Of a DNA stretch of 64,000 nt, positions 21,223 to 45,936 are shown piece by piece. The DNA lies in the sequence record SRR31156797_5325, one strand, 5' to 3'. The notes beneath the pieces are model-generated. The model saw only the letters and a program-made list of their open reading frames with translations. It searched no databases and was not told where the DNA came from. Positions within the stretch are counted from its first letter, which is position 1, and each line of letters opens with the position of its first letter. Position numbers and translations under genes: made by a program.

Positions 21223-21564
21223 ATGAAAAAATTAATCGCTCTAACTGCAGGTCTATTACTCACAACTTCTGCATTTGCTTCTACTTTTACTGTTAGCCAA
21301 AACAGCACAATTAAGACCGACAGTTTTCAAACTAAAGCGGAAGCCTATAACGCAGGGTTTGACTTAACAGATGCTCTAAAAGAAATGGAAAACTCACAAC
21401 TTCGTAAAGAACTTTCTTTATGGGCATACAACTCGGTAAACGATATCACTATTGATGATAGCCAAGTGGTGATTCAAGAGACGGCAACAGAACGTGGCAA
21501 CATTGAATACCGTGCAATTATTAACCTTGGTTACCACTTCAATGCACACGAAAGCAGAAACTAA
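21223..21564 (+). CDS. Exported small protein, DUF3316-like (copy 1)
   Basis: 113 aa; Sec signal ending SAFA; TKAEAY..G motif and C-terminal YRAIINLGYHF beta strand; AAGGAA RBS. Confidence 0.65.
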   Translation: MKKLIALTAGLLLTTSAFASTFTVSQNSTIKTDSFQTKAEAYNAGFDLTDALKEMENSQLRKELSLWAYNSVNDITIDDSQVVIQETATERGNIEYRAIINLGYHFNAHESRN

Positions 21565-21861
21565 GTGTTATTGATTATGCGATCTATCATCCGACGTTGA
21601 ATGTACAGGTTTACCAAATATTAACTCTGTGCATTCATGTCTGATGCACTTTACAAAAAACCAAACTAAATCAGGTTGATGTAAATAATAAAAGTCACCA
21701 TGCTGATTGATTGGATATTTATATGTCTCTTTGTATTAATAGTTAATGTTCAAGAGGGAATATATAAATATCCAGATAATTAGCCAACAAGATAAAAATA
21801 AAGTAGTCAGACTTAAAATCAAATTAAAACTATCAAGTTATAAATTCAAAAGGAAACTATC

Positions 21862-22203
21862 ATGAAAAAATTAATCACTCTAGCAACAGGCCTATTATTA
21901 GCAACATCTGTGTTCGCTTCAACAACCACAGTGACCCAAACTAAATCTTTTAAAACAGACGGCTACCAAACAAAATCTGAAGCATACGACGCAGGATTCG
22001 ATTTAACAGACGCTCTAAAAGGCATGGACAACTCACAGCTTCGTAGCGAACTGTCTTTATGGGCATACAACTCTGTCAATGGCATTGTTATTGACGGTAG
22101 CCAAGTCACAGTGCAGGAAACGGCGACCGAGTTAGGTAAAATCGAATACCGCGCCGTTGTTAATCTCGATTACCACTTTAATGCTCACGAGAGCCGTAAC
22201 TGA
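21862..22203 (+). CDS. Exported small protein, DUF3316-like (copy 2)
   Basis: 113 aa; ungapped paralogue of 21223-21564 (85/113 identical by manual count); same AAAAGGAAACTATC-ATG leader. Confidence 0.65.
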   Translation: MKKLITLATGLLLATSVFASTTTVTQTKSFKTDGYQTKSEAYDAGFDLTDALKGMDNSQLRSELSLWAYNSVNGIVIDGSQVTVQETATELGKIEYRAVVNLDYHFNAHESRN

Positions 22204-22307
22204 TTGATATTGATCGCCCCCTGAATACGCAGATTGCGCTCAACACCCATTCTGCGTATTCGCTCTGTCTCTGCAATAACAGTCATCGCTTCGCTTGCTG
22301 GTTATTT

Positions 22308-22877
22308 ATGGATATCTTCATGCAAATGGTAAACGATAAAATCTGGATAAATTCCGAAACAATATTTGATGTCGAACGACGCACTTTAATCAATAAAGAG
22401 AACCAAAAATGCACATTAGGTGAGAATGAGTTCAGAATTCTACAGTTAATGGCAACAAAGCCAAACAGAGTGATTACCCGGGACGAGATACACCACCACG
22501 TATGGAAACGCAGAGGTGCAAACGTTGACGATTCCAGCCTGACCCAAGCAATTTCCTCCTTAAGAAAATGCCTCGGCGATTCTCCTAAAAAGCCCAGATA
22601 CATAGTGACGGAACCCAGAGTCGGCTACAAATTCATTGGTAAACTGAATTCAGCTGAAGACTTTGAGCATTCTTCAATTGATCCACTTAACGAAAAAACA
22701 CAAGTGCCCACTTCCCACCGATTAAACACAAATCGGTTCCAAGCTTTACAGCAGAAAAACTGGTATTACATCATCGCATCATCTTTACTGGCACTAACAG
22801 CATCTTTAGTTCTGCTTAATGTAGACGACTCGCAAGCCACACTATTATATTTATCCAAAAAGATCAGTTTGTTTTAA
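22308..22877 (+). CDS. ToxR/CadC-like membrane-anchored winged-helix transcription regulator
   Basis: 189 aa; LGENEFRIL, SLTQAISSLRKCLGDS, IVTEPRVGYKF wHTH; one TM near the C-terminus; almost no periplasmic domain. Confidence 0.85.
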   Translation: MDIFMQMVNDKIWINSETIFDVERRTLINKENQKCTLGENEFRILQLMATKPNRVITRDEIHHHVWKRRGANVDDSSLTQAISSLRKCLGDSPKKPRYIVTEPRVGYKFIGKLNSAEDFEHSSIDPLNEKTQVPTSHRLNTNRFQALQQKNWYYIIASSLLALTASLVLLNVDDSQATLLYLSKKISLF

Positions 22878-22892
22878 TCAATAACTATGAAT

Positions 22893-22917
22893 ATAGCACC
22901 ACTAATGTGGTGCTATT
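22893..22917. terminator. Terminator hairpin between convergent genes
   Basis: ATAGCACCAC-taat-GTGGTGCTAT. Confidence 0.7.
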
Positions 22918-23011
22918 TACAATGACTTCCTTTGTTGGAGTCGATTATCGCAGATACATTGATACTGTGTTAACTCTATAACTAAGCCATTTGGATGGCT
23001 AAATTTGTAAC

Positions 23012-24127
23012 TTAAAATGTGTCACTATAAACTTTTATAAGATCATCAAGTGAAAGTTTCACATAACTGTTCTTTATTAATTTTTGTTGATTATCTACAA
23101 CACTATTAGCAAATTCGACAATTTCATTTTCAACCATCCCAAAAGAAGTTAACTTCTGCTTCTTCCAGATACAGTTAAATAATTCATCTAATTCAGAATA
23201 AACATCGTTTTCATCAACATTTAATATCGAAGCAATCAATTTATTAAAAGCTTTAATTTTTCCTTCAGGCGCTTTCTCACTGTATATTTTAAATACCGGT
23301 GTGAAAAACTCGTAATTACACTCTCCATGTGCAACGTGATATTTTGTTCCAAGCGGGTATGCAAGTCCGTGAACGACACCGACTCCGGCATTACCAAAGG
23401 CAATTCCGGCGTAGTTACTGCCAATTAAGAAATCTTCGATTATCTCTGAATAATATTCAGTACCTTTTTCTTTTAAAGTCATAAAACCTTGCAATATGAG
23501 CTCTATGGCTTTTTCAGAAAATAATTCCGTATATGGGTTGGCGTTAGGCGCAACATAAGATTCTGCCGCATGAACCAGCGCATCAATGGTGCTGAATGCG
23601 AAAACCTTATAAGGCATATCTTTCAATAATTCGGGAATCAAGACAGCGTGGTCAGGCAAAAACTCAGGAATAGCCGTACCCATTTTTGTGCCTTTAGACG
23701 TAATCTCAGCCACTGAAATCGCGGTTACTTCACTACCGGTCCCACACGTTGTTGGAATGGCAATAAACTCTCTGGTCTTATTGAAATCGATTTTATTTTC
23801 AAATACTTCAAGACAATCATTCAAGCCCTCAAGAACCAAAAACTTCGCGATATCCATAACAGCACCGCCGCCAATCGCGACAACTCTGTCATAGTCATAT
23901 TGAGCAGCTTCTTTGATAACACTGTTAATGATCTCGTCAGACGGTTCACCTGTACCATATTTTTTAGGTGAAATAACAATGCTCTTCAGATTTAACTGGC
24001 TGATAAACGGTGCATAAGTGGAATTATTGACGACCAGAATGTCTTTCTCACCAAGTTTAAACTCGGACGCAAATTCACTAAATTTATCAAATCTATGAAT
24101 TGTCGGTTGGAGTGTGATTAATTTCAT
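23012..24127 (-). CDS. Iron-containing alcohol dehydrogenase, 4-hydroxybutyrate dehydrogenase-like
   Basis: 371 aa; GEPSD, AIGGGAVMDIAK, PTTCGTGSEVT, DALVHAAES, VHGLAYPLG..YHVAHGE; length and N-terminus resemble clostridial 4HbD. Confidence 0.8.
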   Translation of the reverse strand: MKLITLQPTIHRFDKFSEFASEFKLGEKDILVVNNSTYAPFISQLNLKSIVISPKKYGTGEPSDEIINSVIKEAAQYDYDRVVAIGGGAVMDIAKFLVLEGLNDCLEVFENKIDFNKTREFIAIPTTCGTGSEVTAISVAEITSKGTKMGTAIPEFLPDHAVLIPELLKDMPYKVFAFSTIDALVHAAESYVAPNANPYTELFSEKAIELILQGFMTLKEKGTEYYSEIIEDFLIGSNYAGIAFGNAGVGVVHGLAYPLGTKYHVAHGECNYEFFTPVFKIYSEKAPEGKIKAFNKLIASILNVDENDVYSELDELFNCIWKKQKLTSFGMVENEIVEFANSVVDNQQKLIKNSYVKLSLDDLIKVYSDTF

Positions 24128-24142
24128 AATATCCCTGTCTGC

Positions 24143-25477
24143 TTACAACAATTCATTTAACACTTCTTCAAGTGCGTTGAGGAAAATAGCGGCATGTTCC
24201 TGACCAAACGGAAGCGGTGGACGAATTTTAAGAACGTTACCATCAGGCCCGGAAGCACTGATAAGCACGCGCTTCTGACGCAATGCATTCACAACTTGAA
24301 TCGCCAATTCACCATCAGGCTCTTCTGTCTCTTTGTCCTTAACGAATTCTAATCCGAGAAATAACCCAACACCCCGCACATCACCGATGACAGAGAACTG
24401 CTGTTGCAATCGACGCATACCTTCGAGCATATGACACCCCGTCGCATGCGCATTTTCCATCAGTTTCTCGTCCTGAATAATATCCAGCACAGCAGACGCA
24501 GCCGCTAAAGAAACGTGGTTGCCACCAAACGTATTGAAATAACGAACCAGATTACCGAAGCGATCCTGAATATCAGCCTTCATAACTGCAGCAGCAATCG
24601 GAAGACCATTACCCATAGGTTTACCCATTACCGCGATGTCAGGCACAATGCCATGTCGCTGGAAGCCCCACATATGTTCGCCTGTGCGCCCAAATCCGGG
24701 CTGAACTTCATCGGCAATATAAAGCGCTCCGGCTTTATGTACCACTTCCACTGTTTTTTGTAAGAAACCGGCAGGATCAGCGAAAATGCCATCAGTGGAA
24801 AAAATACCATCAGCGATAAATGCCGCAGGTTTAATACCATGCCGGATCATAGTGTTAATGGCGTGCTCTACATGCTCAGCCAGCACCTCTCCCACATCTC
24901 GGCCATTAGCCTGACGAACATCTGGTGCCGGGACAGTAAACACATGCTGCCCGATAGGGACACTCGGCCCAATCGACGGTGATATTTCAGCAGAAGCCGC
25001 CGTAACGCCATGATAAGCGTTCTCGGTAATGATAACCCCCGTGCCACCGGTATAGTGTTTGGCCACACGAAGAGCCAGATCTACCGCTTCACTGCCCGTA
25101 CATGTGTACATCACTCGCTCTAATTCCGGCGGAAATGTTGCCAGTAACCGTTCGGAGTAGTTAAGAATATTTTCATCAAGATAACGCGTATGTGTATTCA
25201 GTATTGCTGCTTGTTTCGCAACGGCCTCCACCACTCTAGGATGGCAGTGCCCCGCTGACGGAACATTGTTATACACATCTAGATAGGCGTTATCTTGCTC
25301 ATCATAAAGCCATACCCCTTCCGCTCTGACCGGGTGGAATGGTTCTTGATAAAAAAGACGATAAGCAGGCCCCAGTATTGACTGACGTCGCTCTATTAAT
25401 GCCCGGTCTTGTTGCGACAAATTGGCTGAATTTGCCGGATCAAAGCCATTTATCATCCCGGAACTGGACTTAGCCAT
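24143..25477 (-). CDS. Class III PLP enzyme, ETNPPL/PHYKPL (phospholyase)-like
   Basis: 444 aa; YLDVYNNVPSAGHCHP, LNTHTRYL, IADEVQPGFGRTG, MGKPMGNG, YFNTFGGN, LKIRPPL; 1-nt overlap with the kinase gene. Confidence 0.85.
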   Translation of the reverse strand: MAKSSSGMINGFDPANSANLSQQDRALIERRQSILGPAYRLFYQEPFHPVRAEGVWLYDEQDNAYLDVYNNVPSAGHCHPRVVEAVAKQAAILNTHTRYLDENILNYSERLLATFPPELERVMYTCTGSEAVDLALRVAKHYTGGTGVIITENAYHGVTAASAEISPSIGPSVPIGQHVFTVPAPDVRQANGRDVGEVLAEHVEHAINTMIRHGIKPAAFIADGIFSTDGIFADPAGFLQKTVEVVHKAGALYIADEVQPGFGRTGEHMWGFQRHGIVPDIAVMGKPMGNGLPIAAAVMKADIQDRFGNLVRYFNTFGGNHVSLAAASAVLDIIQDEKLMENAHATGCHMLEGMRRLQQQFSVIGDVRGVGLFLGLEFVKDKETEEPDGELAIQVVNALRQKRVLISASGPDGNVLKIRPPLPFGQEHAAIFLNALEEVLNELL

Positions 25478-26556
25478 TATAGTGCCTCCTTGCTAAAAAT
25501 TTCCGCAAAACGCGCGGTCGCTTTATCGCGTCCGACCGCTTCAATTAAATCTAATTGAGTAGCCAGTGTTGGCCAGTAGCGAGTCAGGTGTTCACGCTGA
25601 TCAGGGAAGATGCTCGAACGCCAGGCTGCAATGGTATAACGCATTACAATACGCATAATTATGGCTGGATAAAGGAGGTTAATTTCCAACGGAGTCAGCT
25701 GCTTAAGGGAGGCATATCCTTGTAAACAATCACACGCTTCATCAAGCCAGTTCTCATCTGTACCAATCTGATAAGAGACGGCGACAGCCAGGTCGAATAA
25801 GGCAGGGGCTTTAACCATGTCGCCAAAGTCAATAATTCCGCATATTTCCTCTGGATTCGCTTCATCAATAAGAATGTTATTGGGATTAAAATCGTTATGA
25901 ATAACCTGTGTTGGTAGCTCCTCCATCACGGGTACAATATCGCTTTCGAAAGTACTAATTGCGCTTTCAAGACGTGAGCGCATAGTAAGATCATCGACAT
26001 GCGGCAAAAACTCTCGCATCACCGCGGAATGTTGCATATCCCAAATGATAGGCGGAAGCAGCGAATCGTATTTAAAACCTTCCAGTGCCAACTGCAAACG
26101 AGCAAGCATTTGAACAGCGTTATAGCGCTGCTTAGAGGAGGATTCTGAATCTGTCTGAGCATTTCCGGGAACGAAAGTCACCAAACGAACACTTCGCTCC
26201 TGCCCTGCACTGTCAGTTATACGAAAATCGGCTTCACCATCCAGTGACGGAATGACCCGCTGAAGCGGTATACCAGAATCTTTCTGTTCGACTTCCAGTA
26301 ATGCCTGACTGTGAAAACGAGTCACAACCGACGATTCGCCTGGATTCAAAATCTTCAGCAAATAGTGAGTACCATCCGCCAGTGTGAGTTGATAATTGGA
26401 GTCTTTCTCTCCCCACAACCATTCCGCACGCCCTTCAAGCCCATATTTCTCAAGAGCGATGGCTTCAGCTTCCTCTGGTTGAACAATAACGGCATCGGTT
26501 TTTAACTCCGCTCCGAACTGTTCTAAATCGAGCGATTGAGCAGCTAGTATCGTCAT
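25477..26556 (-). CDS. Aminoglycoside-phosphotransferase-fold kinase, hydroxylysine kinase (HYKK/AGPHD1)-like
   Basis: 359 aa; GEKDSNY, YLLKI, VRLVTFVPG, QVIHNDFNPNNIL, GIIDFGDM. Confidence 0.85.
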   Translation of the reverse strand: MTILAAQSLDLEQFGAELKTDAVIVQPEEAEAIALEKYGLEGRAEWLWGEKDSNYQLTLADGTHYLLKILNPGESSVVTRFHSQALLEVEQKDSGIPLQRVIPSLDGEADFRITDSAGQERSVRLVTFVPGNAQTDSESSSKQRYNAVQMLARLQLALEGFKYDSLLPPIIWDMQHSAVMREFLPHVDDLTMRSRLESAISTFESDIVPVMEELPTQVIHNDFNPNNILIDEANPEEICGIIDFGDMVKAPALFDLAVAVSYQIGTDENWLDEACDCLQGYASLKQLTPLEINLLYPAIIMRIVMRYTIAAWRSSIFPDQREHLTRYWPTLATQLDLIEAVGRDKATARFAEIFSKEAL

Positions 26557-26624
26557 GATTATCTTTCCTTTGAATATAACTTGTACTTAGATTTCCCCGG
26601 GAGCAAACCGGGAAGAAATCAAAT

Positions 26625-28055
26625 TTACTTAGGCTGAACCGGAACAAGAGGGAATTTCTCCGGATACGCATTCTGATAAGCTGCAGCAAGACGTAATACG
26701 ATGTCATCACGGTAGCTTGGACCGACAAACTGTAAACCGATAGGCAAACCAGCTTGGTCAAAACCACACGGAACAGAAATAGCAGGCTGCTCTGTCATGT
26801 TGAATGGGTAAGTAAAAGGTGACCAGTCTGACCAATCCTTACCTTCAATACCTCCAGGGAAATCCACACCAGCTTCGATGGCTGTTAACGGCATGGTTGG
26901 CAACATTAATGCGTCGTACTTCTCATGGAAAAGTGCCATTTTGACTTTCAAATCAGCTCGAACCTGCTCGGCATCAATATATTCACTCGCGGTGATCAGG
27001 CGTCCTTTTTCACAAATACTGAGTAAACCGGGATCCATCAGTTTGAGTTGTTCGTCTGTTGGCCCTGCTAAGTCAATCGTACGCGCTTCAGCGGCATACC
27101 ATAGTGTCAGCAACGCATCCTGAGGATTTGAAAATCCAGGATCGATTTCTTCGACAATCGCCCCCATATCAGCAAGTCTCTTTGCCGCTCTTTCAACCGC
27201 CGCCGCAACCGCTGGTTGCACCTGTGCGTAACCTAAATTGCGGCTATAGCCAATTTTCATTCCTTTTACAGAATTCGTTTTCAAAGCAGAATGCCAGTCA
27301 GGTACTGCTGACGGACAGTAACCATAACGTGATGTAACGGCAGGCCCTGTTGTTGCGTTCATGAACAAAGCAGAATCTTCAACAGTACGTGTTATCGGGC
27401 CTCGGTGAGCCAGTTCAAACAAAGGTGTTGGTGTATCAAAAGGAATCCAGCCATAAGTCGGCTTGATACCAACCACACCGCAGAAAGAAGCCGGAATACG
27501 AATGGAGCCAGCGCCATCAGAACCTTCGTGCAACACCCCCATATTCAATGCAGCAGCAACAGCCGCACCGCCTGAAGAACCACCTGAAGCTCGATCTGTT
27601 CCCCATGGGTTTACTGTGTTGCCAAAGGCCGGACCATGTGTCACCCCTTTCCAAGCAAACTCAGGAGCAGTTGTTGTTCCCAATACAGTCACACCAGCAC
27701 CCCGAAGGCGGTTCATGATCAGGAATTCCTGCGTTGCCGGCTCTGTCTGTCCCAATACAGAACCACGACGTGTCGGTACCCCCTTCACAGGTGTCATCTC
27801 TTTAATCGTAGTCGGAATACCATCAATCGGGCTTAAAGGAGCCCCCTTACGCCAGCGGGCCTCAGAAGCACGAGCCTCTGCCATCGCCAGCTCCGGCACA
27901 ACATGCGCAAACGCATTCACTTCAGGGTTAAAACGTTCAATACGCTCCAGTGAAGCTTTCGCCGCTTCTACCGGAGATGCTTCGCCTGAAGCATAAAGGG
28001 TGGATAACTCTACAGCGGTCATCTCGCCGAGATCTGTTTGTACCAAAGTATCCAT
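26625..28055 (-). CDS. Amidase signature family enzyme
   Basis: 476 aa; GIPTTIKE, SGGSSGGAA, GSDGAGSIRIPAS (Ser-cisSer-Lys triad). Confidence 0.92.
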   Translation of the reverse strand: MDTLVQTDLGEMTAVELSTLYASGEASPVEAAKASLERIERFNPEVNAFAHVVPELAMAEARASEARWRKGAPLSPIDGIPTTIKEMTPVKGVPTRRGSVLGQTEPATQEFLIMNRLRGAGVTVLGTTTAPEFAWKGVTHGPAFGNTVNPWGTDRASGGSSGGAAVAAALNMGVLHEGSDGAGSIRIPASFCGVVGIKPTYGWIPFDTPTPLFELAHRGPITRTVEDSALFMNATTGPAVTSRYGYCPSAVPDWHSALKTNSVKGMKIGYSRNLGYAQVQPAVAAAVERAAKRLADMGAIVEEIDPGFSNPQDALLTLWYAAEARTIDLAGPTDEQLKLMDPGLLSICEKGRLITASEYIDAEQVRADLKVKMALFHEKYDALMLPTMPLTAIEAGVDFPGGIEGKDWSDWSPFTYPFNMTEQPAISVPCGFDQAGLPIGLQFVGPSYRDDIVLRLAAAYQNAYPEKFPLVPVQPK

Positions 28056-28111
28056 GAGTATTCCTCTAATTTAATATTCTGTTTTTATTGCGTTTCCGCA
28101 AAAGCACATGC

Positions 28112-29782
28112 TCATCCATGCATGCGCGCTTCTGATAACCGGCCCGGTATCGCATCAATTAGGCTCTTGGTATAAAAGTCCTGAGGCGTATCGAAGATTT
28201 CAGATCCGGTTCCCATCTCAACAACTTCACCTTTTTTCATCACCATCACTCGGTCACAAATCTGAGCAGCAACACGCAGGTCGTGAGTGATAAAAATCAG
28301 CGATAAATTGAGCTCTATTTTGAGTTTGTTCAACAACTCAAGAACCTGAGCCTGAATGGATACATCAAGCGCTGAAACCGCTTCATCAGCAATGATGATA
28401 TCGGGCTTAAGAGCCAGCGCCCGGGCAATACCAATACGTTGTCGCTGACCACCGGAAAACTCATGGGGGAATCGATCAATCGCTTTAGGATCAAGCCCCA
28501 CCAGCCCCATCAATTCAGCCGCATCTGCCAGTGCTTTGTTCTCATCTTCACCGTAAGCGATAGGACCATCCGCAATAATGCGCCCGACTTTTGCTCTTGG
28601 ATTAAGCGAAGCAAACGGGTCCTGAAATATCATCTGAATATTTCGCCGAGATTGTCTTAGAGCCTCACCTTTCAGGTTGGCCATATCCGTGTCGCCTAAC
28701 AGAACACGCCCAGTATCCGGATCCTGCAAGCGCACTAAGCAGCGCCCTACCGAGGATTTACCAGACCCACTTTCGCCAACAATGCCAAGAGTCTCACCTC
28801 TACCCAAGTTAAAACTGACCCCTTTCACCGCGTGTACCGGCTCTTGCTTTGAGAACAATCCGCCACTACGGCGATAAGTTTTGGTCAGGTTTTCCACCTT
28901 AAGAATGGTTTCACGCTCCGGTTGTTCGGCTTTGCCGCTAAGAAGTCTGGGAATTGCTGAAATCAGTTTCTGGGTGTATTCATGTTTAGGGGAATAAAGC
29001 ACCTCTTCAGCGGTGCCCGCCTCAACAATGCGGCCAAGCTGCATCACAGTGACATAGTCAGCAATCTCGGCAACGACGCCAAAATCGTGAGTGATAAACA
29101 TCACCGCCATGTTTCTCTCGATCTGCAACTTCTGAATAAGCTTAAGAATCTGCTTCTGAGTGGTTACATCCAGAGCTGTTGTTGGTTCATCTGCGATGAG
29201 TACTTGCGGCTCAAGTGCAAGCGCCATTGCGATAACGACACGTTGACGCTGACCACCTGATAACTGGAACGGGTATGACTCAGCAACGCGTGGTGGATCA
29301 GGTAAACCGACTTCAGTAAGCAATTCTATCGCTCTGGCTTTGCGCTCTTTCGGAGTTAAAAGTCCATGCGCTTCAAATACTTCCTCTATTTGCTTAGAGA
29401 CTTTCATAAGAGGATTCAGTGCCGACATAGGCTCCTGGAAAATCATCGCAACCCGGCGTCCCCGTACTCCGTAAAACTCTTCAGGTGACATCGTCAGTAA
29501 GTTCTTGTCCTCTAACATGATACGCCCTTCAGCAACTCGAACTGCATCAGGTAGTAATCCCATTAAGGCGTTAGCTGACATTGATTTACCAGAGCCAGAT
29601 TCACCAACAACACATAACATTTTCCCTGCGTACAAGTTGAGGTTAACTCGCTCTACCGCAAACGGGCGATCAGCGCCATCAGGCAGTGCTATCGAGAGTT
29701 TCGATATTTCCACCACAGGCTGAGCTTCTTCTTTCATAAAATCCACCACATTTGTAGGGAACTCAGAATACATTTCCGTCAT
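28112..29782 (-). CDS. Peptide/opine-type ABC transporter, fused double ATPase
   Basis: 556 aa; two GESGSGKS Walker A motifs, LSGGQRQR and FSGGQRQR signatures. Confidence 0.92.
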   Translation of the reverse strand: MTEMYSEFPTNVVDFMKEEAQPVVEISKLSIALPDGADRPFAVERVNLNLYAGKMLCVVGESGSGKSMSANALMGLLPDAVRVAEGRIMLEDKNLLTMSPEEFYGVRGRRVAMIFQEPMSALNPLMKVSKQIEEVFEAHGLLTPKERKARAIELLTEVGLPDPPRVAESYPFQLSGGQRQRVVIAMALALEPQVLIADEPTTALDVTTQKQILKLIQKLQIERNMAVMFITHDFGVVAEIADYVTVMQLGRIVEAGTAEEVLYSPKHEYTQKLISAIPRLLSGKAEQPERETILKVENLTKTYRRSGGLFSKQEPVHAVKGVSFNLGRGETLGIVGESGSGKSSVGRCLVRLQDPDTGRVLLGDTDMANLKGEALRQSRRNIQMIFQDPFASLNPRAKVGRIIADGPIAYGEDENKALADAAELMGLVGLDPKAIDRFPHEFSGGQRQRIGIARALALKPDIIIADEAVSALDVSIQAQVLELLNKLKIELNLSLIFITHDLRVAAQICDRVMVMKKGEVVEMGTGSEIFDTPQDFYTKSLIDAIPGRLSEARMHG

Positions 29783-29793
29783 GACGAATCTCC

Positions 29794-30633
29794 TTATTTT
29801 CCGCTACGGGACAGGCGTGGATTTAGCGCGTCATTCAGACCTTCGCCAATCAAATTCAACGCCAATACAGTGAACATAATCGCGATGCCAGGGAAGAAAC
29901 TGATCCACCATGCGTGACGAATCGCAGTACGACCGGCACCAATGATGTATCCCCATGACATAACATCAGGAGCACCAAGCCCAAGGAAAGAAAGAGAACT
30001 TTCAATAAGAATTGCTGCGGCAACCATCATTGAAGCAAGGACAATGATTGGAGAAACGGTATTAGGCAGAATTTGACGCCAAATAATGGTTTTGTGTCTC
30101 TGACCAGACAATACCGCCGCTTCAACAAATTCACGAGATCTCAAAGCCATCACTTCCCCGCGTAAAAGACGAGCAACCGGAGGCCAGGAAACAATGCCAA
30201 TAGAGATGACGATTGAATAAAGCGATGGCTGGAAAATAGCAACGAGTACAATGGCAAGTGCGAAACTAGGAACAGATTGAAACAGTTCAGTGAATCGCAT
30301 CAGTGCGTCATCAATCTTCCCACCGAAATAGCCTGCAACCGCACCAATAGGGATACCAATAAGCAGTGACACTAAGGTTGAAATCAATCCAACCAACAAA
30401 GAAACCCGTGCTCCATGCGCTAACTCTGCAGCGATATCACGCCCCATAGTGTCTGTACCAAGGATAAACCCAGGCATAGTAAATGGTGCAAGAAATGGTC
30501 TTTGGACCATTGCCCAAGGAGATTTAGGGAATAAGAACGGGGCACTCACTGACAGAAGTACAACCGCAGCAATAATGATAAGCCCAAACATCGCAGCACG
30601 ATTTTGAGAAAAGCGTTTCCAAAATTCAGTCAT
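29794..30633 (-). CDS. ABC transporter permease (DppC/OppC-like)
   Basis: 279 aa; LGTDTMGRD, EFVEAAVLSG EAA loop. Confidence 0.92.
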   Translation of the reverse strand: MTEFWKRFSQNRAAMFGLIIIAAVVLLSVSAPFLFPKSPWAMVQRPFLAPFTMPGFILGTDTMGRDIAAELAHGARVSLLVGLISTLVSLLIGIPIGAVAGYFGGKIDDALMRFTELFQSVPSFALAIVLVAIFQPSLYSIVISIGIVSWPPVARLLRGEVMALRSREFVEAAVLSGQRHKTIIWRQILPNTVSPIIVLASMMVAAAILIESSLSFLGLGAPDVMSWGYIIGAGRTAIRHAWWISFFPGIAIMFTVLALNLIGEGLNDALNPRLSRSGK

Positions 30634-31602
30634 TTACGCCTCCTTAATTCTTGGATCAACCAAGCGATATAGAACGTCGGTAATCAAGTTAAACAGCAAA
30701 ACCATCGCCGCCGAGACCATAAACACACCAAGCAGTAGATTGTAATCACGTTGTGACAAAGCATCGAACATCAGACGACCAATTCCCGGCCAGGCAAACA
30801 CGGTTTCGATTAATACCGCACCGCTAACCAATTGCCCTGCCTGCAAACCAGCCAGAGTCACAACGGGTAATAAGGCGTTGCGTAGTACGTGTCTTCTTTG
30901 GATAACCGCAGGACGTAAACCTTTTGCTTTCGCTGTTTTGACGAAATCCAGCTGATTCACTTCCAACATCGATGCTCGGGTCATGCGTACATAGACGGCC
31001 ATGAAAAACAGACCAAGAGTCATTGAAGGCAACGCAAGGTGGTGGAGAATATCCAGTATTCGATCCATTCCCGTATAGTCCGCACCAACTGTTTCATAGC
31101 CGAACCCCGGCAACCAGTTAAGTTGAACTGAAAATAGCAGTACTCCCATCAGCGCCAACCAGAAAAGAGGCGTGGCGTAAAAGATAAGCGCAACAAAAGA
31201 AATCGCCATGTCACTGAGTTTTCCCTGACGTGCTGAAGCAATAGCCCCACCCAATACGCCAAGTCCTAACGAAATGACAAAAGCAGAAAGTGACAGCAGT
31301 AAAGTCGCTGGTAATCGGTCACCGATCAAATCAACAACCGGAAGTGACTGACGATAGGAAAAGCCTAAATCAAGCTGAACTATCGACGAAATATAAATCC
31401 AAAGCTGTACATAAAGTGGCTGATCAAGGCCAAAGCGTTCACGTAGTTGTTGAAGGAAAATCGGGTCTGTGTCACCGGCCTCACCCGCCATTACTGCAGC
31501 TGGGTCACCTGGTGCCATATGAATGAGCAAGAAGTTAAATACAGCGATACACAGTAAAATGATAATTGCCCGTACAAGCCGTCCTGAGATAAAACGAATC
31601 AT
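30634..31602 (-). CDS. ABC transporter permease (DppB/OppB-like)
   Basis: 322 aa; PGDPA, FVKTAKAKGL, ETVFAWPGIGRL. Confidence 0.92.
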   Translation of the reverse strand: MIRFISGRLVRAIIILLCIAVFNFLLIHMAPGDPAAVMAGEAGDTDPIFLQQLRERFGLDQPLYVQLWIYISSIVQLDLGFSYRQSLPVVDLIGDRLPATLLLSLSAFVISLGLGVLGGAIASARQGKLSDMAISFVALIFYATPLFWLALMGVLLFSVQLNWLPGFGYETVGADYTGMDRILDILHHLALPSMTLGLFFMAVYVRMTRASMLEVNQLDFVKTAKAKGLRPAVIQRRHVLRNALLPVVTLAGLQAGQLVSGAVLIETVFAWPGIGRLMFDALSQRDYNLLLGVFMVSAAMVLLFNLITDVLYRLVDPRIKEA

Positions 31603-31636
31603 GATCTTCTCCGGAGATGTGTAGATAAAGCGTGGA

Positions 31637-31661
31637 GTGCGAGGGAGCTATTCCCTCGCAC
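31637..31661 (-). other. Intercistronic stem-loop after the solute-binding protein gene
   Basis: GTGCGAGGGA-gctat-TCCCTCGCAC; typical position for stabilising SBP mRNA. Confidence 0.55.
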
Positions 31662-31670
31662 CAGGTATGA

Positions 31671-33269
31671 TCAGTGTTTGATCCAAGTATCACGTAACGA
31701 GTCAGAAAGACCATTAGCCGTGGTGACTGCTTTCTGGAATTTGCAGTTGTAGATAGTCGGGAAATGAAGGTCAAGCAACCAAGCTACAGGAACATCCTTT
31801 TGCAGCTTCTCCTGAACCTGATCGTAAATTTTCTGACGCTCTGAAGCCGGGAAAGCAACTGAGGCCTGGTCAAATAAAGTATCTACTTCAGGGTTGCTGT
31901 AGCCTGCAACGTTAGTCCAAGGTGAACCTTTAGGAATTTGACTGGTACGGTAGTTACGTTCCACACCAATCGCCGGGTCACCATTCTGATACATGTAAGT
32001 AAACGCAATATCGTAATCGCGGTTTGCATTGCGCTGGTTCCAGCCAGCCACATCCGTCGCTTCGATGCTAACAGCAATACCCACCTCTTCGAGGTTCTGT
32101 TTCACAGCCTCAGCCCAACGCTGCCAGGTCTCTCCATATGGCAACGGAAGTAAGCGAAGCGGCTCACCTTTTTCATAACCGATCTCTTTTAGCAATGCTT
32201 TTGCTTTTTCAGGGTTATGTTCGTAAGTTGGTTTCTGCTCACTGTAGAAAGGCAAACGCTGCGAGAAAGGACCCGTTGCAATCTCACCGTGACCATTCCA
32301 TAAAACATCCAGAGCGAACTGTCGATCCAGCGCATACATAACAGCCTGACGGAATTTAGGATTATCCATTGGTGCGACAGTATTATTCATCCACAACCAT
32401 GACAATGGTGATGTATATTCCCAGCCTTTTTCTGTCAGACAGGTATTTGGTAAATCAGACAAACGGGCAATATCAAAGTTTTCAACAGTGCCACCAGGAA
32501 GCGCATCTAAAACTCCCGTTTCATAAGCAACAGCTCGAGAAGCGGCGTCAGGAATAATGTGATAAATAACTTCATCAAGGTATGGCTTACCTGCCATATA
32601 ATAATCTTCATTTTTGACTAACTTAATAAAGTTACCACGTTGCCATTCCGAAAATTTAAACGGTCCGGTACCAATGGGCTTATCATTATTTGGATTATTA
32701 CTGTAATCGGTTCCAGCATAAAGGTGCTTAGGAATAATAGGCATTTTGCTGAAGTTAAATGAACGAATAAAAGCCTCAAATGGCTGGCTCAGTTTAAAAA
32801 CAACGGTATTAGCATCAGGTGCCGTTACTGAATCAACGTGACTCATAATAAGGCGTTGGAATGGCTGCGTTTTAACCAGAAAATCACTCACACTAAACAC
32901 CACATCTTCAGATGTCATCGCGACACCATCATGAAACTTGACGTTCTCTTGCAGGTGGAACGTGTAAGTCAGTCCATCATCCGAGATTTCCCATGACTTA
33001 GCCAGAGATGGATGAGGCTGCAACTTATCATCGTAACGCAACAGTCCTTCGTAAATATTACCGCCAACAGCCTGACTTGATGCATTACTGATAACACCAA
33101 GCATCAAAGATGGTGGCTCAGGAATGACCGTTAAATTGATTTTTCCGCCTGGTTCAGGTGTGTCACTTGCAACAGCAACACCAGTGGCTGAACCCGCAGC
33201 CATAATTGCCATCAGACAATGCGAAGCAATTGATATTTTGGGCGATTTCCATTGTTTGATAAAACTCAT
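31671..33269 (-). CDS. ABC transporter solute-binding protein, family 5
   Basis: 532 aa; signal peptide, LAKSWEISDDGLTYTFHL, PIGTGPF. Confidence 0.92.
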   Translation of the reverse strand: MSFIKQWKSPKISIASHCLMAIMAAGSATGVAVASDTPEPGGKINLTVIPEPPSLMLGVISNASSQAVGGNIYEGLLRYDDKLQPHPSLAKSWEISDDGLTYTFHLQENVKFHDGVAMTSEDVVFSVSDFLVKTQPFQRLIMSHVDSVTAPDANTVVFKLSQPFEAFIRSFNFSKMPIIPKHLYAGTDYSNNPNNDKPIGTGPFKFSEWQRGNFIKLVKNEDYYMAGKPYLDEVIYHIIPDAASRAVAYETGVLDALPGGTVENFDIARLSDLPNTCLTEKGWEYTSPLSWLWMNNTVAPMDNPKFRQAVMYALDRQFALDVLWNGHGEIATGPFSQRLPFYSEQKPTYEHNPEKAKALLKEIGYEKGEPLRLLPLPYGETWQRWAEAVKQNLEEVGIAVSIEATDVAGWNQRNANRDYDIAFTYMYQNGDPAIGVERNYRTSQIPKGSPWTNVAGYSNPEVDTLFDQASVAFPASERQKIYDQVQEKLQKDVPVAWLLDLHFPTIYNCKFQKAVTTANGLSDSLRDTWIKH

Positions 33270-33714
33270 ACAACACTTCCTTGTGATTGTTATTTAACCG
33301 ATATATCAATATATAGCATGCCGAAAAATATGATTTCAAGCGTTTTTATTTGCCCCAAGAACTGTTTTTATTTTCACCAAAAATGGGCGTTTTTTTGCCC
33401 CAATCTGGACATCAGACACACTCCTAACGCAAGTTGATAAAAAATAAGAAATCTTTATCTAGAAAACGATAGGCAATCAGTCACCTAAACAGTGACTGAC
33501 ATCGATATCTGAGATAAAACAATCAAGATTGGTGCAAAAAAAATATTAGAGCTTTAAATCTAGTTTTTGACTAAAAGGAACTAGCCGCGATAAATTGAAG
33601 ATGCAGACTAAAAGCAAAGACAGTATCAGCCTTTAGTGACTATATTTCATGACGTCATTGGGGGGAAATGAACGCAGGCAAGTCGCCCGCGTCTTCTTCT
33701 GTGGAAAGTATCGG

Positions 33715-34461
33715 TTACTCCTGAGGGATAACCAATGCATTAAGAATATCCATATCCTCTTCCTGGATAACGATATTAGGGTTTTCTTCGACAACCAGAG
33801 ACAACATTCTGGCAATGTCGTCAAGGTGGCTTCGAATCAGTTCGCAAGCCAAATCCTCATCATTTGCACGAATAGCATCATAAATCGCCCGATGCTCATT
33901 AACCATTGCATCAAAGTAGCCCGACTTAGGAAACGCCCGATAGCGAACCCGGTCAAGCTGCCCAATAGAGCTATGAATGGTCTGCCAGACATTGGGGAAT
34001 CCGGCCACTTTACAAATCAACTGATGAAAAGAGTTATCTATAGAGAAAGCTTCATCATAGTCTTCCCTCTCTGCGGTATCAGACTGAAGAAACATGAGCA
34101 ACTGAAATTCTTTATCAAACACCGAGTTGTATTTACGGGCAGCTAAGCGCACCATCCTCATCTCAAGACTTGATCGTACAATTTGTCCTTCAATCACACT
34201 GCGCACAGAAATTTTGCTGACAAAGGTACCGTCGCCAGGAACGATGTTAATTAACCCCTCCTGAGCAAGGCGAAGAACCGCCTCCCGGACAGGTGTTCGC
34301 GAGATATTGAAATTAGCGCATATCTCTTTCTCACTCAGAATTGCACCAGGTTCAAGCTCCATTTTTATGATGGCATCCCGAATTCCGTTATAAGCCAAAA
34401 CAGCCTTGGGCTGGCCACCGCTACTTGGTCTTGAATCAGACCACTTTGTAAATGAATTCAC
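33715..34461 (-). CDS. GntR family (FCD domain) transcription regulator
   Basis: 248 aa, GTG start; ISRTPVREA HTH; DNSFH, EHRAI, HL metal-site motifs. Confidence 0.9.
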   Translation of the reverse strand: MNSFTKWSDSRPSSGGQPKAVLAYNGIRDAIIKMELEPGAILSEKEICANFNISRTPVREAVLRLAQEGLINIVPGDGTFVSKISVRSVIEGQIVRSSLEMRMVRLAARKYNSVFDKEFQLLMFLQSDTAEREDYDEAFSIDNSFHQLICKVAGFPNVWQTIHSSIGQLDRVRYRAFPKSGYFDAMVNEHRAIYDAIRANDEDLACELIRSHLDDIARMLSLVVEENPNIVIQEEDMDILNALVIPQE

Positions 34462-34906
34462 TCGCTATGCTCTCCCTATACCTCAAAGGAAATAGACTCA
34501 AACCAATGGATTTGGATAGGCAGGTTTAAGTATTTATTAATTGTTCATAACTCATTTATATACGTCTGAGCCATTCTGATATTGATGTATCATGATTCTG
34601 TTTTTTGTCAAAATCAAGCTGATTAATTTTTATAAGATAGAAAAATTAATATATAAACTTTAACGTCCTAAATATTACAATCCAAATCAAACTAAAAATA
34701 ACGAATAGATATTAAAAATTAAAACTTCAGATTATTTTTAACTTTACGGCCTGACTTAAATAGAAACCCAAGTATTCACGACAATAATTTATAAAAATCA
34801 ATATTATTGTTAATACAAACAGCTCGGTATTAAACACTATTCCAGATATTAAAAACACCCACATTAATCTCGCTTATTCTAGAGTAAGAACCTCTGACAC
34901 CAATAC

Positions 34907-34936
34907 AAAAAAAGGCACCACATATGTGATGCCTTT
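34907..34936 (-). terminator. Terminator of the cyo operon
   Basis: Minus strand AAAGGCATCACATATGTGGTGCCTTTTTTT. Confidence 0.75.
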
Positions 34937-34968
34937 CAGCTTGTGACGGAGTTTTCAAAAATGAAAAC

Positions 34969-35841
34969 TTAGATCAAAATAGGGATGAACAGCTCGACAC
35001 CCAATACGGTACTGATGCCCATGACAACCAGTAACGACACTTTGAATACGGCTTTTGACCATTCAACATAATTTTCTTCAGTGACTTTTTTGAACGTCAC
35101 TTGTGTCCACATAAAACAGACACCTGCCGCAACAACCAAGTACTCGTAACCGCCATTTCCTAACAGAAACAGACCCAACGCGACTAGGTTAAATGCAACG
35201 ACATAAGCCATCATGTGCTTGCGCGCTTTTTCGATACCAGATACCACCGGTAATACAGGAATGCCGGCATTTTTATAATCTTGCATACGAAACATTGCAA
35301 TGGCATAGGAATGTGGCATCTGCCATAGGCTGAACAAAGCAAACAGCAACACGGCTTCCAAGCTGATGTAGTTGGTTACTGCTAAGTAACCAACCAGCGG
35401 AGGCACAGCGCCAGAGACGCTGCCGACCAGAGTTCCATATACTGAATTGCGCTTGTACCACATGGTGTAGAAGAAGACGTAGAACACGTAACCCAATAAC
35501 ACCATAACAGCCGAAAGCGGGTTCGCCATGCGATAGAGAAGCCCTGTCCCCATTAACAGCAGTACAATGGCAAATACAAAAGCATGATCAATATTGATAT
35601 CGCCTTGCGCCAATACACGTCCGCGAGTTCGATCCATTTTTAAATCGATATCACGGTCAAAAATATTGTTTACCACGCAACCCGAAGCAATCACCATAGC
35701 TACCCCAGCCAATGTGTAGAGTAACAATAGTCCATCCGCAGCCTCTGATTTAGCTGCGAGGAAATACCCCGCAGCCACAGAGATTAAGTTGCCGATGATA
35801 ATGCCCGGCTTAGTAATTGATAGGTAACCTCTGATCATCAT
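34969..35841 (-). CDS. cyoE: Heme o synthase (protoheme IX farnesyltransferase)
   Basis: TKPGII, NNIFDRDIDLKMDRTRGR, WQMPHSYAIA. Confidence 0.95.
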   Translation of the reverse strand: MMIRGYLSITKPGIIIGNLISVAAGYFLAAKSEAADGLLLLYTLAGVAMVIASGCVVNNIFDRDIDLKMDRTRGRVLAQGDINIDHAFVFAIVLLLMGTGLLYRMANPLSAVMVLLGYVFYVFFYTMWYKRNSVYGTLVGSVSGAVPPLVGYLAVTNYISLEAVLLFALFSLWQMPHSYAIAMFRMQDYKNAGIPVLPVVSGIEKARKHMMAYVVAFNLVALGLFLLGNGGYEYLVVAAGVCFMWTQVTFKKVTEENYVEWSKAVFKVSLLVVMGISTVLGVELFIPILI

Positions 35842-44147: not shown

Positions 44148-45023
44148 TTATTGCTCAGCTTCCGCTTTTATCGCCTTAAACAAAATAGAAGTATCCATAC
44201 GGCCATTACCTTGATCAGAAAGCGATTGATATGCCTTGATCGTTTTCTCTGTCATTGGCAGTTTGACACCTTGGCGATCAGCTTCATCAAGACAGAAACC
44301 AAGATCTTTGATCATCCAGTCAATCGCAAAACCAAAATCAAACTTGTTTTGAGCCATGGTCGATGCTCGGTTCTCCATCTGCCAAGATCCGGCTGCGCCA
44401 TTCTTCAAACAAGAAACCAATGTTTCAACATCCAAGCCCGCTTTTTCCGCTAAAATTAAACCTTCGGAAATGCCTGTTAGCGCACCAGCAATGCAGATCT
44501 GGTTGACCATTTTCGCACGCTGGCCCTGCCCTACTTTGCCCATTAATACCGATGAACGGCCGTAAGCATTAAATACGGGTTGAAGCTTATCGAAGTCCTC
44601 CTGACGACCACCGCACATAATCGTCAGTACGCCATTTTCAGCCCCCGCTTGTCCACCAGATACTGGCGCATCCATAAAGCTTACTCCAACAGCTTGAGCC
44701 GCTTCTGAGAGCTCTTCTGCTAAGTGAGCAGAAGTCGTTGTATGGTCAACCAGCAATGCCCCGTTTTTCATGAATGCTAATGCACCAGTTTCGCTGGTGG
44801 TCATACTGCGCACATCATCATCGTTGCCTACGCAGACCAAAACAACATCGGCTTCTTTTACACAGTCGGCAACGGTTGATGCATACGAGCCTGCATACTC
44901 TTCAGCCCAAGCTTGAGCTTTTGCTGTTGTGCGGTTAAACACCGTGACTTCGAAACCGGCTTTAACCAAATGCCCAGCCATAGGGTAGCCCATGACACCT
45001 AAACCAATAAAACTGACTTTCAT
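44148..45023 (-). CDS. NAD(P)-dependent beta-hydroxyacid dehydrogenase (3-hydroxyisobutyrate dehydrogenase family)
   Basis: Start set to MKVSFIGLGVMG at 45023; DAPVSGG, KMVNQ, KDL. Confidence 0.9.
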   Translation of the reverse strand: MKVSFIGLGVMGYPMAGHLVKAGFEVTVFNRTTAKAQAWAEEYAGSYASTVADCVKEADVVLVCVGNDDDVRSMTTSETGALAFMKNGALLVDHTTTSAHLAEELSEAAQAVGVSFMDAPVSGGQAGAENGVLTIMCGGRQEDFDKLQPVFNAYGRSSVLMGKVGQGQRAKMVNQICIAGALTGISEGLILAEKAGLDVETLVSCLKNGAAGSWQMENRASTMAQNKFDFGFAIDWMIKDLGFCLDEADRQGVKLPMTEKTIKAYQSLSDQGNGRMDTSILFKAIKAEAEQ

Positions 45024-45024
45024 T

Positions 45025-45936
45025 TTAATCTCCTTTAACAACGGGCTTTCCATCTCTGAGCTGAGCTGACGCTTTCAACAAAGCCTCAACCAGCAAGGTC
45101 AGTGCCCTAGGCTGATATTTGCGTTCTTTGTAGACTAAGAACGCTTGTTTATCACTGCGATGATACTGAGGAAGAACTTGCTCAACTCTCATCTCTTTAG
45201 AAATATGTCTATAGGGTAACGATGCAACCCCCAAACCTCGAATAACAGCACCGGCAATCGCGTTAATGTCATTGATCACTAAATTGGGTTTTATGTGTAG
45301 CATCTGAATGAAGTCATCCCCCTGATAAATCGGGACTTCTTTTTGGCGGTCGGCAGAAAGCCAGTCAAGTCGCTGTAACTGCTCAAGAGTTTCTACCGGC
45401 CCGACTTTTTCCAAATATTCAGGACTAGCAAAAAAGCCGTGATGCGCTTGAAAAAGAGGCCTGGCTACCATGCCTTCCAAACCGGTTAGGTCAAAGGTCA
45501 TCAACAGATCACGATTCGTTTCTGGCAGTGATTGATCCTGACTTAGCGCGAGTTCAATGTTTACCTTAGGATGAAGACGAATAAACTCTTCAACCACTTC
45601 ACCAACGAAAGCACGATAGAAATTGTGCGGAATAGCCAGACGCAACTGACCTGCCACTTCTTCACTGTGCGTCATAATCTGATTGAAACTGAGCTCAATG
45701 TTTTCCATTCCACTACGAATAATCTGAAATGTCTCTCTTCCAGACTGAGTCGCAACCAACTCCCTCCCCTTCTTTTCTAATAAACGTAAGTTCAATCTCG
45801 ACTCAAGCGCAGACAAACGCCGGGACATCGTCGAAGGTGGAAGTTTCAGTTTCTTTGATGCGGAAAGTAGCGATCCCTCTTCAACCACACAAAAAAACAG
45901 GTACAGATCATCAACGTTTCCATATATGGAATTCAT
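45025..45936 (-). CDS. LysR family transcription regulator
   Basis: 303 aa; VVEEGSLLSAS..PPSTMSRRLSALESRL HTH and LysR substrate domain. Confidence 0.9.
   Translation of the reverse strand: MNSIYGNVDDLYLFFCVVEEGSLLSASKKLKLPPSTMSRRLSALESRLNLRLLEKKGRELVATQSGRETFQIIRSGMENIELSFNQIMTHSEEVAGQLRLAIPHNFYRAFVGEVVEEFIRLHPKVNIELALSQDQSLPETNRDLLMTFDLTGLEGMVARPLFQAHHGFFASPEYLEKVGPVETLEQLQRLDWLSADRQKEVPIYQGDDFIQMLHIKPNLVINDINAIAGAVIRGLGVASLPYRHISKEMRVEQVLPQYHRSDKQAFLVYKERKYQPRALTLLVEALLKASAQLRDGKPVVKGD

Follow-up and report, generated by a model that had tools for sequence, protein, structure and literature searches.

Positions 34461-23012 of a 64,000-nucleotide stretch of sequence record SRR31156797_5325 (the window) carry nine minus-strand genes, which are interpreted here, with slightly better than even confidence, as a catabolic operon for nitrogen scavenging, under GntR control, on chromosome 2 of a member of the Vibrionaceae. 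In the proposed pathway a small amide-containing, peptide- or opine-like compound would be taken in by a Dpp/Opp-type ATP-binding cassette (ABC) importer. Its amide would be hydrolyzed by an amidase-signature enzyme, freeing or completing a vicinal amino alcohol with a terminal CH2-NH2 group. The adjoining hydroxyl would be phosphorylated by an APH-type kinase, and phosphate and ammonia would then be eliminated by a class-III pyridoxal phosphate (PLP) enzyme, leaving an aldehyde. This aldehyde, for which an omega-oxo acid such as succinic semialdehyde is the best guess, would be reduced with NADH by an iron-dependent alcohol dehydrogenase (ADH) of the 4-hydroxybutyrate dehydrogenase (4HbD) type. 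The catalytic steps, the direction of the ADH reaction and the substrate are predictions from sequence. By homology the operon appears to consist of eight genes shared with high-GC clusters of other bacteria and one low-GC gene of clostridial or fusobacterial type.

Gene content of the operon

Gene families were assigned with Pfam and NCBIfam. The genes, in order of transcription, are as follows.

33715..34461, minus strand: GntR-family regulator with FCD ligand domain, FadR subfamily (Pfam GntR 8.9e-18, FCD 2.9e-21)
31671..33269, minus strand: periplasmic substrate-binding protein (SBP) of the peptide/opine/nickel (cluster C) type, with signal peptide (SBP_bac_5 4e-92)
30634..31602, minus strand: ABC permease, DppB/OppB type (BPD_transp_1 and BPD_transp_1_N; 72-87% identity in orthologous clusters)
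29794..30633, minus strand: ABC permease, DppC/OppC type (BPD_transp_1 and OppC_N; 71-82% identity in orthologous clusters)
28112..29782, minus strand: fused double ATPase, a single DppD-DppF-like chain (ABC_tran twice, and oligo_HPY)
26625..28055, minus strand: amidase-signature amidase (Pfam Amidase 2.2e-93)
25477..26556, minus strand: APH-family small-molecule kinase (APH 3.9e-23)
24143..25477, minus strand: class-III PLP enzyme, phospho-lyase branch (Aminotran_3 2.3e-74)
23012..24127, minus strand: Fe-ADH, clostridial 4HbD family (Fe-ADH and ADH_Fe_C)

The nine open reading frames (ORFs), their coordinates and their common orientation were as listed in a preliminary description of this DNA. 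The 1-nt overlap of the kinase and PLP-enzyme genes claimed there was also found, base 25477 being part of both the kinase stop and the PLP-enzyme start. The PLP-enzyme and ADH genes are separated by 15 nt, the ATPase and amidase genes by 56 nt, and the regulator and SBP genes by a spacer of 445 nt. Catalytic motifs were intact in every enzyme of the operon.

Kinase and probable phospho-lyase

The PLP enzyme contains the motifs GKPMGNG (Lys286) and DEVQ (Asp256), both invariant in an 11-sequence alignment, and has the class-III fold. Its top matches in the PDB were 5g4i (3e-105, 356 bits) and human ETNPPL (6tor; 2e-103, 350 bits). The third was dialkylglycine decarboxylase (8e-57, 196 bits) and true transaminases scored lower still, leaving a gap of ∼48 orders of magnitude in E-value between the phospho-lyases and the next family. 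On these scores the enzyme appears closer to characterized phospho-lyases than to transaminases, decarboxylases or racemases, and it would be expected to eliminate phosphate and ammonia, leaving an aldehyde. Membership of PbfA was rejected (219.9 bits against a cutoff of 525).

The kinase has the APH fold with its catalytic motifs, HNDFNPNN (Brenner motif) at residue 220 and DFG at residue 243. A single PDB match was obtained (6ef6, 3e-5), and a search of the ESM Atlas returned generic APH 'phosphotransferase' clusters only. The protein is therefore best placed in the APH family at large, with no finer subfamily, and would phosphorylate the hydroxyl beside the terminal amine.

The two proteins are closely coupled. 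A genome scan with the PLP-enzyme alignment gave 80 loci; in 66 of these the gene immediately before the lyase, on the same strand, encodes a kinase homologue. The fused 1015-aa NCBIfam profile NF004799 is matched at positions 7-307 by the kinase and at 573-1010 by the PLP enzyme. Together with the 1-nt overlap, these findings identify the kinase as one dedicated to a PLP phospho-lyase. The preliminary description had assigned HYKK-type kinase and phospholyase chemistry to the pair; this stays plausible on account of the proximity of the PLP enzyme to 5g4i and 6tor and the tight coupling, and for the kinase it comes down to membership of the APH family.

An excerpt of PMC8154272 names ethanolamine-phosphate phospho-lyase and one close relative as the only documented phosphate-releasing lyases in class III. 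Other kinase-linked lyases matched 5g4i about as well as the window lyase did (Paenarthrobacter locus L041, 2e-105; Thioclava locus L082, 4e-99). Because these scores are so much alike, none of the three is taken as an orthologue of 5g4i, and ethanolamine is not inferable as the substrate from similarity to the ethanolamine-phosphate enzymes. The Paenarthrobacter loci had been considered as carriers of orthologues of A1RDF1 (5g4i) and were rejected on the same score, so that the position of the Thioclava lyase gives no ground for inferring ethanolamine either.

Amidase, importer and regulator

The amidase belongs to NCBIfam NF004815/PRK06169 (572.7 bits, cutoff 506), a family that carries no assigned substrate, and has the GGSSGG signature at residue 158. 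It is predicted to cleave an amide bond of the imported compound. In the 12 amidase-type loci described below it is 66-82% identical and lies directly upstream of the kinase-PLP pair in every case.

The Pfam assignments give a complete Dpp/Opp/Nik-type importer architecture, comprising SBP_bac_5, two BPD_transp_1 permeases and an ATPase with oligo_HPY tail. The fused ATPase is YejF-like and GsiA-like by NCBIfam, with Walker A motifs at residues 60 and 336. The best solved relative of the SBP was AgaA (6hlx, 5e-54), and its identity to the SBPs of orthologous clusters is 60-75%.

The GntR/FCD protein probably represses the operon. Ten of the 12 orthologous clusters have a GntR protein, with 55-70% identity to that of the window. 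The window protein reached no NCBIfam equivalog cutoff. Its start codon is uncertain, GTG being taken from the longest ORF.

Alcohol dehydrogenase

The ADH matched Cvir-Hbd2 (PDB 30sm) with an E-value of 1.6e-100. Identity was 79% to a protein of Vibrio salinus, 75% to V. viridaestus, 68% to Ilyobacter and 51% to the 4HbD of C. kluyveri (P0228), and about 50-55% to clostridial proteins generally. Cvir-Hbd2 is described in an excerpt of PMC13495136 as a selective 4-hydroxybutyrate dehydrogenase, and the residues named in that excerpt were mapped onto the window ADH by hand on a HMMER alignment to 30sm. N34, D181, H185, H252, H266, Y256 and N270 are kept, and Y36 is Ser. The columns of the His3Asp metal site and of Y256 and N270 are invariant in a 10-sequence alignment. 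The earlier identification of the gene as a 4HbD is upheld as far as the clostridial family is concerned (1.6e-100, 51% identity, conserved metal ligands), activity being deduced from homology. The Cupriavidus-type 4HbD model NF058672 was not reached (103.8 bits, cutoff 500); this model represents a different 4HbD lineage.

No ADH homologue at E<=1e-80 was found in any of 401 sampled Gammaproteobacteria, and the genome with the Rhizobiaceae locus L001 gave no close homologue (best 29%). The ADH thus appears, from its distribution and composition, to be a low-GC addition specific to this Vibrio lineage.

Orthologous clusters

Amidase searches of plasmids and metagenomes, together with a single genome locus, gave twelve loci of the amidase type. 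Their GC content is 56-63%, and three are of named origin: a Rhizobiaceae metagenome-assembled genome, Rhizobium lusitanum plasmid p_1 (L081) and a Thioclava plasmid. Their genes run in the order SBP, two permeases, ATPase, omega-transaminase, amidase, kinase and lyase, often with an M20 hydrolase next, and GntR comes last. The cluster has orthologues of eight of the nine window genes, at 51-86% identity. Gene content of the 12 loci was as follows.

Kinase directly upstream of lyase: 12/12
Omega-transaminase: 11/12; the remaining locus is truncated upstream
M20 hydrolase: 8/12; 8/10 of those with room downstream
GntR: 10/12
4HbD-type ADH: 0/12; in 10 of them 1.6 kb or more follows the lyase

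The R. lusitanum cluster (L081) has the same order SBP-permease-permease-ATPase-amidase-kinase-lyase as the window. Identity between the two is 75% for the SBP, 74 and 81% for the permeases, 80% for the ATPase, about 80-81% for the amidase, 51% for the kinase, 75% for the lyase and 68% for GntR. The window differs from the 12-locus cluster in lacking the omega-transaminase and M20 hydrolase, in having GntR at the front instead of the back, and in the added ADH. The omega-transaminase of the clusters reaches NCBIfam PRK06105 and is only ∼26% identical to the window PLP enzyme. Its best solved relatives are omega-amine:pyruvate transaminases, and 4-aminobutyrate transaminases are also among them. 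A homologue of the omega-transaminase, the M20 hydrolase or an HDAC-like deacylase was not found in the 64-kb window, so that the full gene set of the high-GC clusters is not present there.

A second architecture was found in 11 of the 80 loci, which combine an orthologous importer (SBP 52-60%, permeases 62-73% identity) and the kinase-lyase pair with an HDAC-like deacylase and lack the amidase. The importer is present in all 11 of the HDAC-bearing loci, which often also contain an M20 hydrolase, an omega-transaminase, a thiamine pyrophosphate (TPP) enzyme or an aldehyde dehydrogenase. Since these 11 loci exchange the amidase for an HDAC-like deacylase, the link of importer, amide hydrolase, kinase and lyase is recurrent, and the predicted import, de-amidation, phosphorylation and elimination form a recurring design; two unrelated amide hydrolases in one slot argue that removal of an acyl or amide group before phosphorylation is the point of that design.

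The HDAC-like deacylase (PF00850) architecture was seen in L063 (4981-11323), L056 (3781-11281), L025, L045, L049, L061, L069, L073, L078, L003 and L004, variously accompanied by a 2-hydroxyacid dehydrogenase as well. Hosts include Roseobacter-group bacteria, Bradyrhizobium, Microvirga, Variovorax, Acidovorax and Achromobacter.

Other surroundings of related lyases were also read. On Mesorhizobium loti pML2037 (L112) and Agrobacterium cucumeris pO132a (L114), GntR, kinase and lyase (66-68% identity) occur with an ABC importer of the amino-acid type, after which come an oxidoreductase, an enzyme of the enolase superfamily, an aldolase of the HpcH type and a hydrolase. Genes for a dehydratase, an amidohydrolase and a Gfo/Idh/MocA dehydrogenase are close by. 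From its gene content this looks like a route for an amino-polyol or amino sugar acid. Among plasmid records, 269 matched the window lyase, 42 of them from Klebsiella. The Klebsiella/Enterobacter matches listed are each about 60% identical to it, and the surroundings of one were read: L113 (Klebsiella pneumoniae plasmid pM186-2, 3913-11218) comprises a lysine/arginine/ornithine-type ABC importer, GntR, kinase, lyase (61%) and an EamA exporter, with flanking insertion sequence (IS) elements and yersiniabactin genes near.

Phylogeny of the lyase

An unrooted tree was calculated from 105 lyase sequences. A supported clade was formed by the window lyase, two proteins with 93% and 85% identity to it and the lyase of Vibrio nitrifigilis; its sister is a Rhizobiaceae-dominated clade with 11 of the 12 amidase-type loci. 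The Thioclava cluster has an orthologous importer, omega-transaminase and amidase (60-72% identity); its kinase is 30% and its lyase 50% identical to those of the window, and the lyase lies elsewhere in the tree. Forcing the amidase-linked lyases, a group defined after the first tree had been seen, into a single clade cost 93.5 log-likelihood units (p-AU 7e-5). Because their monophyly was rejected, the amidase module and the kinase-lyase pair would have been joined at least twice. Any direction of transfer is likewise an inference, since the tree is unrooted.

Weighing of the pathway and its substrate

Several observations weigh against the pathway set out above or against a particular substrate. 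No NCBIfam specificity model (GsiB, NikA, DppA, OppA, CntA and others) was reached by the SBP at its cutoff, the best being GsiB at 175.7 against 594, and the ligand is for this reason not readable from homology. Both the omega-transaminase and the M20 hydrolase of the ancestral cluster are without a clear place in the scheme and are missing from the window. Since reduction of the aldehyde to an alcohol gains the cell neither carbon nor energy, the operon could be only a nitrogen or fermentative route; such a reduction would suit a facultative anaerobe using the compound for nitrogen only. The ADH gene is of foreign composition (GC 0.368 and third-codon-position GC, GC3, 0.333, against GC of 0.44-0.50 in the other eight genes) and is absent from 12 of 12 orthologous clusters, including the 10 with at least 1.6 kb after the lyase. 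On both counts the ADH may be unrelated to the pathway or serve the acyl half of the substrate. Arg348 of Cvir-Hbd2, a carboxylate-contacting residue at the tunnel mouth according to the excerpt of PMC13495136, is replaced by Lys349; of 10 aligned sequences, three (the window ADH, P0121 and P0126) have Lys in this column and seven have Arg, and the charge is kept. Lastly, lyases 60-68% identical to that of the window (tblastn) adjoin importers of the lysine/arginine/ornithine type, which suggests hydroxylated basic amino acids; the sugar-acid enzymes at the two alphaproteobacterial loci suggest still another kind of substrate.

The substrate named in the preliminary description was an amide or N-acyl conjugate of 4-amino-3-hydroxybutyrate (GABOB), imported and converted by the lyase to succinic semialdehyde and by the ADH to 4-hydroxybutyrate. 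Membership of the ADH in a selective 4HbD family speaks for it, as do the class-III aminotransferase genes of C. viride, which adjoin hbd for 4-aminobutyrate fermentation and lead to the same succinic semialdehyde node (PMC13495136, excerpt). The 4-aminobutyrate transaminases among the solved relatives of the ancestral omega-transaminase are consistent with a C4 omega-amino-acid theme; from these families, either 4-amino-3-hydroxybutyrate or 2-hydroxyputrescine, the latter via 4-aminobutyrate, would fit as a source of succinic semialdehyde. The proposal is weakened by the fact that its sole pointer to succinic semialdehyde, the ADH, is one non-conserved gene of odd GC found in none of the 12 clusters. 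In addition, this ADH, like its two closest relatives, has Lys for Arg348, a natural, widespread GABOB amide was not found and none is known, and close kinase-lyase relatives adjoin basic-amino-acid-type importers. GABOB is a possible substrate, to which a low probability is given. About equally improbable is that the ADH is a passenger, which landed behind the acquired eight-gene cluster, is co-transcribed with it and serves the 4-aminobutyrate, succinate or 4-hydroxybutyrate metabolism of the host. Its foreign composition and its absence from all orthologous clusters would favor this, and its 75-79% identical homologues belong to V. salinus and V. viridaestus, species absent from the best 120 of 8000 PLP-enzyme matches. 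A functional link would be favored by the 15-nt spacing, by the lack of a terminator-like site in the gap and by the Lys349 variant, common only to the ADHs of the window, P0121 and P0126. Moreover, the PLP-enzyme relative P0002 (85%) and the ADH relative P0126 (71%) report the same longest contig of 62,899 nt, a hint that linkage of ADH and lyase was kept across this divergence.

Slightly less probable again is that the amidase frees an omega-substituted acid as well, which would be 4-hydroxybutyrate, oxidized by the ADH, in the Vibrio and a 4-aminobutyrate-like acid, handled by the omega-transaminase, in the high-GC clusters, both giving succinic semialdehyde. This would account for the presence in the window of a 4HbD-type ADH instead of the omega-transaminase seen in 11 of 12 loci: both enzyme types give succinic semialdehyde from isosteric C4 acids, and the nearest solved relatives of the omega-transaminase are omega-amine:pyruvate enzymes. 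The high identity of the SBP (75%) and amidase (about 80-81%) between window and R. lusitanum argues instead for the same ligand, a natural amide of this kind was not identified, and clostridial 4HbD is, as a general point in the excerpt of PMC13495136, normally reductive. A somewhat lower probability still is given to a basic amino acid, for example 5-hydroxylysine, that would enter as an N-acyl or peptide conjugate and be converted to 2-aminoadipate semialdehyde as by animal HYKK/PHYKPL. The related PLP enzymes found with GntR, kinase and a lysine/arginine/ornithine-type importer on Mesorhizobium, Agrobacterium and Klebsiella plasmids point this way, and the omega-transaminase could handle the non-hydroxylated analogue in parallel. 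Against it, the Mesorhizobium and Agrobacterium loci also carry the sugar-acid enzymes that suggest other substrates, and a 4HbD-type ADH would be an odd partner for an alpha-amino semialdehyde. That the PLP enzyme is an ordinary omega-transaminase, with a kinase acting elsewhere and no elimination of phosphate, is considered very improbable. Databases label related proteins aspartate or 4-aminobutyrate aminotransferase-like; set against these labels are the two best solved matches, which are phospho-lyases by a wide margin, the adjoining kinase in 66 of 80 loci, the fusion of the pair in an NCBIfam family and the separate omega-transaminase already present in the ancestral cluster.

The nitrogen-scavenging pathway with an amide-masked vicinal amino alcohol is accordingly kept as the working scheme. 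A broader form of it is entertained as a speculation and judged rather unlikely as a whole. In it, import, de-amidation, phosphorylation and elimination would be a widespread bacterial route for amide-masked vicinal amino alcohols, with the non-homologous amidase-signature, HDAC-like and M20 hydrolases as interchangeable front ends and a kinase/phospho-lyase core mobile among Alpha-, Beta- and Gammaproteobacteria, which the Vibrio lineage would have re-tooled for fermentative life with a clostridial-type semialdehyde reductase. Candidate substrates of such a route may include acylated hydroxy-polyamines, hydroxy-omega-amino acids and hydroxy-diamino acids.

Operon boundaries, transcription signals and host

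The operon is flanked by cyoABCDE on one side and by a ToxR-like/DUF3316 group on the other. Three further features were recorded.

34910..34937, minus strand: strong terminator 3' of cyoE, with a stem of 12 pairs and a T run behind it; closes the operon upstream
33478..33498, no strand: inverted repeat CAGTCAC-N7-GTGACTG, perfect 7+7, in the GntR-SBP spacer; candidate operator by its form and position
22893..22916, minus strand: hairpin with 10-bp stem between the convergent ADH and ToxR-like genes; likely transcript end

Two hairpins lie 3' of the ADH stop, and the fold of 22878-23011 has an energy of -35 kcal/mol (z-score -4.13). The terminator scan gave no terminator-like site in the 15-nt gap between the PLP-enzyme and ADH genes, the nearest minus-strand sites listed being inside coding sequence (24962-24948 and 25517-25503). 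In the promoter and terminator scans the number of sites was not above that in shuffles. The pattern CAGTCAC-N7-GTGACTG had one match in the window and 0 in 100 shuffles; when the two promoter spacers were scanned for inverted repeats, the only pairs obtained were AT-rich and of low quality. No RNA family was found in an Rfam search of the window. GC-rich stem-loops were seen by eye in the SBP-permease spacer (31603-31670) and the amidase-kinase spacer (26557-26624). Hairpins that stabilize or attenuate mRNA are common after binding-protein genes, and these two may be of that kind.

Four DNA runs were compared with 21800-35600. Run X2 covered 30 of 30 bins with ∼99%-identical pieces, including a 1025-nt contig that spans the ADH 3' end and the ToxR-like gene, and X8 covered 28 of 30 at about 93-96%. 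No listed piece among the contigs of the four runs bridges the PLP/ADH junction in this interval.

The window encodes RctB, the Vibrionales chromosome-2 initiator (741 bits), adjoined by a ParA-type partition gene, a stretch of 34% GC and a turn in cumulative GC skew near 50 kb. Because of RctB, the ParA-type gene and the skew turn, the host is assigned to the Vibrionaceae and the operon placed ∼14-25 kb from the chromosome-2 origin. In a class-level search of 401 genomes, CyoB of the window reached no more than 73% identity. Positions 48329-53739, which hold RctB, 34% GC at 50-52 kb, the ParA-like gene (51537-52760) and an unassigned 323-aa ORF (52768-53739), are on this gene content taken as the chromosome-2 replication origin region.

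Other genes of the window include maltodextrin genes at 231-8237 (a MalQ-like 4-alpha-glucanotransferase, a glycogen/maltodextrin phosphorylase and a MalT-like regulator). At 8274-17698, minus-strand ORFs of 799 aa (no Pfam match), 486 aa (GDPD), 150 aa (none), 339 aa (none), 958 aa (FtsK/SpoIIIE ATPase stretch only) and 212 aa (none) may form a mobile or defense-type island. Convergent with the operon, positions 21223-22877 contain two tandem DUF3316 genes (113 aa each), then a 189-aa ToxR-like protein with winged-helix Trans_reg_C. Outside the operon, at 44148-45936, an oxidoreductase of the 3-hydroxyisobutyrate-dehydrogenase family, a family that includes semialdehyde reductases, lies with a LysR regulator.

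Significance

Kinase and phospho-lyase chemistry is biochemically documented for very few enzymes, as far as the excerpt of PMC8154272 goes. The pair forms the core of conserved, mobile operons in many Proteobacteria, where it is always annotated 'aminotransferase' and 'phosphotransferase'. Identification of the substrate would correct much annotation, would add to the nitrogen-scavenging routes of soil, rhizosphere and marine bacteria, and would explain related modules on plasmids of rhizobia, agrobacteria and Klebsiella. The mosaic of eight genes matching a cluster seen otherwise in Alphaproteobacteria and a low-GC clostridial-type dehydrogenase is an example of operon re-tooling after transfer.

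Comparison with known systems

The core chemistry is already known. A literature search, with most subscription journals outside its coverage, gave no paper on bacterial amidase-kinase-phospholyase or HDAC-linked clusters, and the operon architecture, its spread and the re-tooling in Vibrio are likewise without a description found in the literature.

HYKK/PHYKPL, ETNPPL and A1RDF1 share with the window a class-III PLP enzyme (6tor 2e-103, 5g4i 3e-105) and a paired APH-type kinase. By analogy with HYKK/PHYKPL and ETNPPL the same chemistry would be expected in the window, namely phosphorylation of the hydroxyl beside a terminal amine and elimination of phosphate and ammonia. The window kinase may be comparable to HYKK. 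The window pair differs from these systems in being embedded in an importer-amidase operon.

The kinase of PDB 6ef6, which we take to be the amino-alcohol kinase of a mycobacterial aminoacetone/1-amino-2-propanol microcompartment, working with a class-III enzyme, is of the APH family like that of the window, at very weak similarity (3e-5). Unlike that system, the window is without microcompartment genes.

The clostridial abt-hbd 4-aminobutyrate clusters (C. viride; C. kluyveri 4HbD), as far as the excerpt describing them goes, also place a class-III PLP gene beside a 4HbD-type Fe-ADH. Unlike in those clusters, no 4-hydroxybutyryl-CoA dehydratase or CoA transferase was found among the annotated ORFs of the window. 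The PLP partner in the window is of the lyase type, and its ADH has R348 changed to K and Y36 to S.

Among importers of the SBP_bac_5 class, AgaA (6hlx), HbpA, GsiB and DppA have the same architecture as that of the window. AgaA, the ligand of which is presumably agropinic acid, is the best solved match.

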